A DNA stretch of 64,000 bases from Escherichia coli (GCF_024502345.1 NZ_JALDNN010000001.1); one strand, 5' to 3'. Counted from the first letter of the stretch, positions 21,758 to 21,781 are shown. A program made the numbers and translations. Notes: generated from the letters alone by a model not told the origin.

Positions 21758-21781
21758 AAATATTCAAAAAAATGAATATTT
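21758..21781. promoter_or_regulatory. Inverted repeat AAATATTCA-N6-TGAATATTT upstream of yhfX (candidate operator)
   Basis: Perfect 9-bp arms about 30 bp upstream of the yhfX ATG; shares TTCA...TGAA core with the yhfZ-upstream palindrome. Confidence 0.4.

Follow-up and report, generated by a model that had tools for sequence, protein, structure and literature searches.

The yhf cluster and its palindromes

The stretch of DNA analysed here, referred to as the window, comprises 64,000 nucleotides of an Escherichia coli chromosome segment that is 97% identical to MG1655 in the yhf region. On its plus strand, the genes run in the order aroB-damX-dam-rpe-gph-trpS-yhfZ-yhfY-yhfX-yhfW-php-yhfU-yhfT-yhfS, with identities taken from the RefSeq annotation of near-identical E. 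coli genomes and from Pfam. The gap between yhfY and yhfX, 83 bp long and bounded by the yhfY stop codon (21725-21727) and the yhfX ATG (21811), is present in 5075 of the 5426 complete E. coli genomes searched and is single-copy there (median 1 place per genome). The search found no other near-identical stretch, and no feature is annotated in the gap. The features of the region are collected in Table 1.

Table 1. Features of the yhf region, with positions counted from the first nucleotide of the window
Feature	Position	Strand	Remarks
trpS intrinsic terminator	20300..20331	+	GAAACCGGGGAAACCCGGTTTT and a T run
CRP-like site	20352..20367	+	TGTGA-AGCGCC-TCGCC; centre ~61 bp upstream of the putative yhfZ start, class I geometry
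Putative -35 of the yhfZ promoter	20385..20390	+	TTGCCA; abuts Z1; TTG invariant in the anchored alignment
Z1, operator-like palindrome	20391..20416	.	CTTATCTTCA-TTTTAA-TGAAGATATA; between putative -35 and -10 of yhfZ
Putative -10 of the yhfZ promoter	20408..20413	+	GAAGAT; 17 nt after the -35; right half-site of Z1
Z2	20415..20440	.	TAAACATTCA-TTTTAT-TGAAAATATA; 1 mismatch; ends 3 nt before the yhfZ ATG
yhfZ	20443..21348	+	HTH_41 winged-helix and YhfZ_C (periplasmic-binding-protein-like) domains; candidate binder of X1, Z1 and Z2
yhfY	21365..21727	+	120-aa stand-alone PRD-domain protein, weak Pfam match
X1, 26-bp operator-like palindrome	21757..21782	.	TAAATATTCA-AAAAAA-TGAATATTTA; perfect 10-bp arms
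X1, TTCA	21763-21766
X1, A6 spacer	21767-21772
X1, TGAA	21773-21776
Candidate -10 of a weak yhfX promoter	21774..21779	+	GAATAT; same register as the yhfZ -10 in Z1; speculative
Alternative candidate -10	21768-21773	+	AAAAAT; speculative
yhfX Shine-Dalgarno sequence	21800..21803	+	GAGG; 10 nt from the ATG; cGAGGCa kept in many genera
Structural genes yhfX-yhfW-php-yhfU-yhfT-yhfS	21811..27852	+	downstream of X1

The palindrome in the gap, X1, is identical in K-12. A first-pass annotation of this DNA had described it as AAATATTCA-AAAAAA-TGAATATTT at 21758-21781, with perfect 9-bp arms and about 30 bp upstream of yhfX; the sequence matches this description exactly, with 29 nt measured between 21781 and the ATG. 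One further complementary pair (21757-21782) extends the arms to 10 bp and leaves 28 nt between the end of X1 and the ATG, so that the centre of X1 is separated from the ATG by 41.5 bp and from the Shine-Dalgarno sequence by ~31 bp. With arms of 10 bp and half-site cores centred 10 bp apart, X1 has the symmetry of an operator, and a symmetric consensus, TAAATATTCA-N6-TGAATATTTA, was derived from 68 sites. X1 does not resemble an intrinsic terminator, as its ten-pair stem contains one G-C pair and is not followed by a T run, and it was absent from the terminator scan; nor does it have the character of an interspersed repeat (REP/BIME or MITE), the gap being single-copy. Its core reads ATTCA-N6-TGAAT and does not match the CRP core TGTGA-N6-TCACA. 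Classical operators of the GntR family are palindromes around GT-N(x)-AC, a core found in none of X1, Z1 and Z2, all of which carry TTCA-N6-TGAA.

Upstream of yhfZ, the trpS intrinsic terminator isolates yhfZ from preceding transcription. Between trpS and yhfZ there is also a G+C-rich interspersed repeat (~20190-20235; a 2-kb query gave a median of 5 places per E. coli genome), and one paper has classed a yhfZ-upstream element as a BIME. The palindrome reported upstream of yhfZ is present as TATCTTCA-TTTTAA-TGAAGATA at 20393-20414, with 10-bp arms, and forms the core of Z1; in K-12, the arms are kept and the spacer differs. The claim that it has a TTCA/TGAA core in common with X1 is borne out, both sites being TTCA-N6-TGAA. 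The first-pass annotation had counted two such sites and pointed to a genome search for further TTCA-N6/8-TGAA sites; a motif search of the 64-kb window brought a third site, and the spacer is N6 in both palindromes. Specifically, ATNTTCA-N6-TGAANAT with at most one mismatch matches only three places in 64 kb (20394, 20418 and 21760), and therefore a third site, Z2, exists besides X1 and Z1. Z2 lies 24 bp downstream of Z1, centre to centre, and the distance from Z1 to X1 is 1366 bp.

Z2 covers the predicted yhfZ start near 20420, and yhfZ has no visible Shine-Dalgarno sequence. In the CRP-like site, TGTGA is invariant and TCnC is kept among 13 genus-level representatives, at a fixed distance from Z1 and from the conserved TTG of the putative -35. 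We infer that CRP is the protein recognizing 20352-20367 from the known consensus, TGTGA-N6-TCACA, and the position of the site suggests that cAMP-CRP activates the yhfZ promoter in the class I mode. Taken with what is known of promoter geometry, the conservation points to a yhfZ promoter that would be both CRP-dependent and autorepressed.

X1 and Z1 stand apart from other palindromes of the window. The window contains 10 distinct perfect palindromes whose arms measure 10 bp or more and whose loop does not exceed 10, against 0.6 expected under a first-order Markov model; X1 and the yhfZ-upstream palindrome are the only AT-rich ones, the other eight being G+C-rich and either terminator-like or coding. 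Scored with a 26-nt weight matrix, X1 reaches 36.5 bits, Z1 32.5 and Z2 32.3, with nothing else in the window at 10 bits or above, a test that is partly circular because the matrix was built from orthologous sites. Shuffled windows scanned with the same matrix gave zero matches. Elsewhere in the window, a perfect palindrome with 12-bp arms, ACGTTGGCGTGA-AGATGC-TCACGCCAACGT at 28808-28837, sits at the junction of two minus-strand ORFs of the frl region (28012-28809 and 28843-29628) and is a possible operator or internal regulatory site. Another, with perfect 11-bp arms, is TGAATTCAGCA-CTGC-TGCTGAATTCA at 49541-49566.

X1 is conserved and co-occurs with the yhf cluster

A YhfX scan with one genome per species gave 71 loci, from which 834 kb of sequence was fetched. 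Among these loci, the order yhfZ-yhfY-yhfX is found in Escherichia, Citrobacter, Klebsiella, Trabulsiella, Enterobacter, Atlantibacter, Cedecea and Chimaeribacter, as well as in Lelliottia, Serratia, Photorhabdus, Xenorhabdus, Yersinia, Providencia, Limnobaculum and Pluralibacter. From Escherichia to Yersinia, Photorhabdus, Xenorhabdus and Providencia, the footprint TAAATATTCAAAAAAATGA is near-invariant in the yhfY-yhfX gap and both of its flanks are unalignable. Across 19 genus-level representatives, mean column identity is 0.91 in the 26-bp X1 versus 0.41-0.42 in the flanks, and 11 columns are invariant across 28 distinct site sequences. Matches of at least 14 bits in the 834 kb lie almost exclusively in front of yhfZ, at distances of ~40 and ~16 nt, and in front of yhfX, at 34-190 nt. 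Z1, ~40 nt upstream of the yhfZ ATG, is conserved in the manner of X1, as usually is Z2, ~16 nt upstream, which most Enterobacterales loci carry.

The evolution of X1 is asymmetric, in that the left arm and the A6 spacer are near-invariant and the right arm varies; moreover, the spacers of Z1 and Z2 are far less constrained than that of X1. Neither property is accounted for by a simple site for a symmetric dimer, and together they suggest a second, overlapping signal at X1, for example an embedded -10, a bend, or another protein such as YhfY. Individual loci depart from the common arrangement. In Citrobacter sp. R56 (L006 5933-5978), the arms of X1 lengthen to a perfect 20 bp (TCCTTCACCTTAAATATTCA...), and in Photorhabdus asymbiotica (L027 5801-6000), an insertion of ~120 bp between X1 and yhfX puts the site 188 nt upstream. 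Xenorhabdus (L036-L040, L042) has an extra distal site of 26-27 bits ~142 nt upstream of yhfZ. Photorhabdus heterorhabditis carries an isolated 27-bit site 4.5 kb upstream of yhfZ (L028, position 24), for which no plausible downstream target gene was found within the locus.

Beyond the Enterobacterales, the motif continues to accompany the cluster. In Vibrio, TATATATTCA-AAATAA-TGAAGATAAA is located 18 nt upstream of yhfZ. A one-base variant, ATATACA-N6-TGTATAT, occurs in the clusters of Clostridia, Lachnospiraceae, Tissierella, Coriobacteriaceae, Atopobiaceae and Erysipelotrichaceae; it is found upstream of yhfZ in Gram-positive clusters that keep a detectable yhfZ, and in four loci (L053, L054, L056 and L058) it recurs between yhfZ and the first structural gene. 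The variant-bearing Gram-positive and actinobacterial loci are L051, L053, L054, L056, L058, L059, L063, L064 and L065, and the first structural gene there is yhfY. Several of these TACA-type sites lie 4 nt after a TATAAT or TATTGT -10 hexamer or lie between -35 and -10, a placement that, as read from the sequence, is the geometry of a repressor. The half-sites of the variant have the order AC...GT, opposite to the GntR GT-N-AC.

The regulator changes along with the site. In an alignment of the YhfZ N-terminus, the presumed start of the recognition helix is S-V-G-L in all genomes with the TTCA-type site and x-R-G-T/N in all genomes with the TACA-type site. This joint switch of helix and operator is consistent with co-evolution, and it represents essentially one evolutionary split. 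Co-occurrence and co-variation of the site with the regulator gene, as expected of an operator, are found in Enterobacterales, Vibrio, Firmicutes and Actinobacteria.

Six Yersinia species (Y. aleksiciae, artesiana, thracica, proxima, massiliensis and aldovae) have a yhfY-yhfX-yhfW-yhfU-yhfT cluster beside acrAB with no regulator gene nearby, and these acrAB-linked clusters keep sites upstream of yhfY and yhfX. Such clusters could be taken as counter-examples to a cluster-encoded regulator; the objection is answered, in Y. aldovae only, by a second cluster that bears yhfZ. This cluster, hmp-yhfZ-yhfY-yhfX remnant-php-yhfU-yhfT, has its own sites, and its YhfZ shares 89% identity with the Y. frederiksenii protein. 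Given this unlinked yhfZ in Y. aldovae, the regulator can act in trans. Two paralogous yhf clusters exist in Yersinia (L032, L033, L039, L044, L062 and L071 versus L073-L076), and in Y. aldovae yhfY has decayed in the acrAB-linked cluster and yhfX in the hmp-linked one.

Transcription signals and RNA structure in the gap

A consensus scan found no consensus sigma-70 promoter in the yhfY-yhfX gap. Position-anchored scoring of 51 orthologous gaps, together with the anchored alignment, likewise revealed no conserved -35 upstream of X1, and the -35 register that is valid at Z1 is not conserved at X1. What this scoring did reveal is a set of weak -10-like hexamers inside the palindrome, the best position-conserved ones in the gap being AAAAAT (the spacer and a T) and AATATT and GAATAT (in the arms). 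The first of these and GAATAT are the speculative -10 elements of Table 1. No intrinsic terminator was detected in the gap, nor in the folded 70 nt upstream of X1 in 21 species, and polymerase starting at the yhfZ promoter should therefore reach X1.

No experimental transcription start for the gap was found in the searchable papers and supplements, and the supplements of SMRT-Cappable-seq and RpoD gSELEX studies do not mention yhf genes. The operon lists of two papers, which carry database-derived annotation, give a yhfX-yhfS unit separate from yhfZY with yhfX as its first gene; in one of them, from the Sci Adv 2025 supplements, yhfX appears as an operon-leading gene.

At the RNA level, the gap folds with an MFE of -12.2 kcal/mol (z = -2.66), and a 10-bp A-U hairpin is present in the predicted fold. 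The hairpin shows no covariation: 83.2% of cells are paired versus 83.5% in shuffles, with one compensatory cell only. Pair 6-21 is broken in 17 of the 28 distinct sequences, and changes accumulate in the right arm (TGATGATTT, TGAAGATTA, TGAAAATAA and others), leaving the left arm constant. An Rfam search of the gap matched no family, and the combination that marks a RAT-type antiterminator, a hairpin over a terminator together with compensatory changes, is not seen at X1. Because pairing is not conserved, Rfam has no match, the terminator is lacking and YhfY has no CAT domain, we conclude that X1 is selected as double-stranded DNA.

A probable cluster-specific operator and its alternatives

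YhfZ, whose C-terminal domain is PDB 2OZZ, is the only protein of the cluster with a DNA-binding domain in Pfam. YhfY gives a PRD match only, without the CAT RNA-binding domain of BglG/SacY-type regulators; with no DNA-binding domain either, it was rejected as the primary DNA binder. It is possible that YhfY modulates YhfZ, and a YhfZ-YhfY complex is another possible binder. To our knowledge, there is no experimental operator for the family of YhfZ. No YhfZ binding site, ChIP signal, regulon or inducer is described in the searchable literature, in which the papers naming yhfZ present it as a putative regulator, a screen match, or a neighbour of a BIME repeat. Among the other cluster proteins, YhfU (DUF2620; yhfU-yhfT, 25047-26755) has only a faint similarity to RpiB/LacAB-type proteins (E about 0.4). 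Taken with YhfY as a free PRD protein and YhfT as a membrane protein, this similarity hints at a PTS-like transport and control module. Across genomes, YhfU and YhfT come in two types, with identities of 75-100% or 31-42% to their E. coli counterparts.

It is likely that X1 is a DNA operator for a dimeric HTH regulator specific to the yhf cluster, most probably YhfZ, and the regulation exerted there is probably repressive. TTCA and TGAA are centred 10 bp apart and thus face successive major grooves on one side of the helix, so that an HTH dimer would read both across an A/T-only minor-groove spacer, in the standard symmetric geometry, with wing contacts perhaps made to the flanking ATAT. Through Z1, between the putative -35 and -10, and Z2, over the start, YhfZ would autoregulate yhfZ-yhfY; through X1, it would keep yhfXW-php-yhfUTS silent until released by a ligand, a step to which the PRD protein YhfY may contribute. 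Silencing at X1 could proceed by one or both of two routes, occlusion of a weak internal promoter whose -10 sits inside the operator, and a roadblock to RNA polymerase reading through from the yhfZ promoter. The roadblock would uncouple basal, autoregulated expression of yhfZ-yhfY from that of the structural genes. The position of the Shine-Dalgarno sequence limits any start to ~30 nt from the operator centre, and hence X1 overlaps any core promoter. It is the candidate -10 hexamers inside X1, together with the expected read-through, that favour a repressor operator, whether by occlusion, roadblock or both. The earlier proposal of one regulator acting on two promoters is supported and extended: that one regulator recognises the same motif before yhfZ and yhfX is strongly backed by comparative genomics, and the separate yhfX promoter stays putative, the gap having neither a consensus sigma-70 promoter nor a terminator.

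The main alternative to a repressor operator is an activator role, in which YhfZ or YhfZ-YhfY, in the presence of the inducer, would recruit or remodel RNA polymerase at a yhfX promoter devoid of a -35. The missing -35 upstream of X1 is typical of activator-dependent promoters, and yhfX leads its own transcription unit in the two operon lists (by annotation only), but the centre of X1 is so close to the ATG that the site overlaps the core promoter instead of occupying -41.5 or -61.5. In addition, repressor geometry is seen both in the Gram-positive sites, placed directly downstream of good -35 and -10 hexamers or between them, and in Z1 and Z2, which overlie the core promoter of yhfZ; activation is accordingly regarded as rather unlikely. 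Somewhat less probable again is that X1 owes its conservation mainly to a core promoter role for yhfX, as an AT-rich -10 or UP-like sequence whose dyad symmetry is incidental. This would fit the origin of the best -10-like hexamers within X1 and the conservation of the spacer there and not at Z1 or Z2; however, the dyad recurs with a variable spacer at Z1 and Z2 and as the TACA variant in distant phyla, and 11 invariant columns, including TTCA and TGA, exceed the needs of a -10 for which there is no sigma-70 match. The core-promoter and operator readings can be compatible.

The remaining explanations carry little weight. A role for the palindrome as an RNA hairpin in the yhfZYX... transcript, either as a target of YhfY in the manner of BglG/SacY antiterminators or as a processing or stability element, would accord with the 10-bp hairpin of the predicted fold and with the PRD protein encoded immediately upstream. 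It is very improbable, given the lack of covariation, the invariant left arm beside a changing right arm, the missing terminator, CAT domain and Rfam family, and the presence of the motif upstream of the yhfZ promoter region as well, where such RNA logic fails. A global regulator or nucleoid protein (IHF, Fis, ArgR or a CRP-family member) is equally hard to credit as the binder: X1 is AT-rich with an A-tract and by eye resembles the IHF sequence WATCAANNNNTTR with 2 mismatches, yet the motif accompanies the yhf cluster from phylum to phylum, varies together with YhfZ, and does not occur in the remaining 62 kb of the window. The words TGAAT and ATTCA do occur in ARG boxes, but in the opposite order (TGAAT-N4-ATTCA), and CRP needs TGTGA/TCACA, for which 20352-20367 is the better site. 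Likeness to ARG box, IHF, Fis, KdgR, Cra and TorR sites was set aside on an informal comparison of half-site order or sequence. That X1 is a chance AT-rich palindrome has a vanishingly small probability; although ~0.6 perfect palindromes with 10-bp arms would arise at random in 64 kb, chance is refuted by conservation across many genera, the recurring core, and exclusive placement in the 5' regions of the cluster.

The favoured repressor operator can be compared with several well-known systems. FadR/HutC-type repressors of the GntR superfamily are, like YhfZ, cluster-encoded proteins with an N-terminal winged HTH and a C-terminal ligand domain, and they act on palindromic operators at their own and the structural-gene promoters, with cores one turn apart and over the core promoter, as is envisaged for yhf. 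They differ in that YhfZ combines HTH_41 with YhfZ_C and not with a FadR/HutC/MocR/YtrA C-terminus, and in that its motif departs from GT-N-AC. In lacI-lacO and in the roadblock systems of PurR, CcpA and CodY, as in yhf, the regulator gene lies upstream without an intervening terminator, so that an operator could stop read-through. Unlike in these systems, operators and a CRP-type promoter also precede the yhf regulator gene itself, and the roadblock at X1 is a putative one; in contrast to lac, no looping through auxiliary operators is indicated between Z1 and X1. The palindromes of CRP/FNR (5-N6-5) resemble X1 in having pentamer cores 6 bp apart, a total of 22-26 bp and an A/T-rich centre, but the half-site of X1 is ATTCA, not GTGA/TCAC, and a distinct CRP-like site exists upstream of yhfZ.

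The PRD regulators, which include the activators MtlR, LicR and LevR and the antiterminators BglG/SacY, offer a further parallel, as the PRD protein YhfY adjoins a DNA-binding regulator. The conservation of YhfY with this regulator across phyla suggests a PTS-type phosphorylation input. In known families, however, the PRD is fused to a DNA- or RNA-binding module, whereas the yhf clusters encode a separate 120-aa YhfY, and no CAT domain, RAT hairpin, terminator or EII domain was identified in the yhf cluster. A tentative extension, more doubtful than the operator itself, is a split PTS-responsive regulator conserved from E. coli to Clostridia with a one-base operator switch. In this scheme, YhfZ would bind the three operators, and YhfY would tune YhfZ according to transport by YhfU/YhfT as an unrecognised PTS-like EIIB/EIIC. 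X1 would have two purposes, as a roadblock or insulator between the autoregulated regulator genes and the structural genes, and as the carrier of a -10 in its unusually conserved A6T spacer.

About 94% of complete E. coli genomes carry the cluster yhfZYXW-php-yhfUTS, as do many bacteria associated with the gut or with insects, and crystal structures exist for some of its proteins. X1 does not reveal a new kind of mechanism. With the operator motif and the repressor hypothesis in hand, a yhfX reporter or YhfZ-operator binding could be used to screen for the inducer, and hence for the substrate of the pathway, and the motif can be used in genome scans for further members of the regulon. Finally, the TTCA/TACA switch, with its accompanying change in the recognition helix, provides a small natural test case of specificity in the unstudied HTH_41 family.
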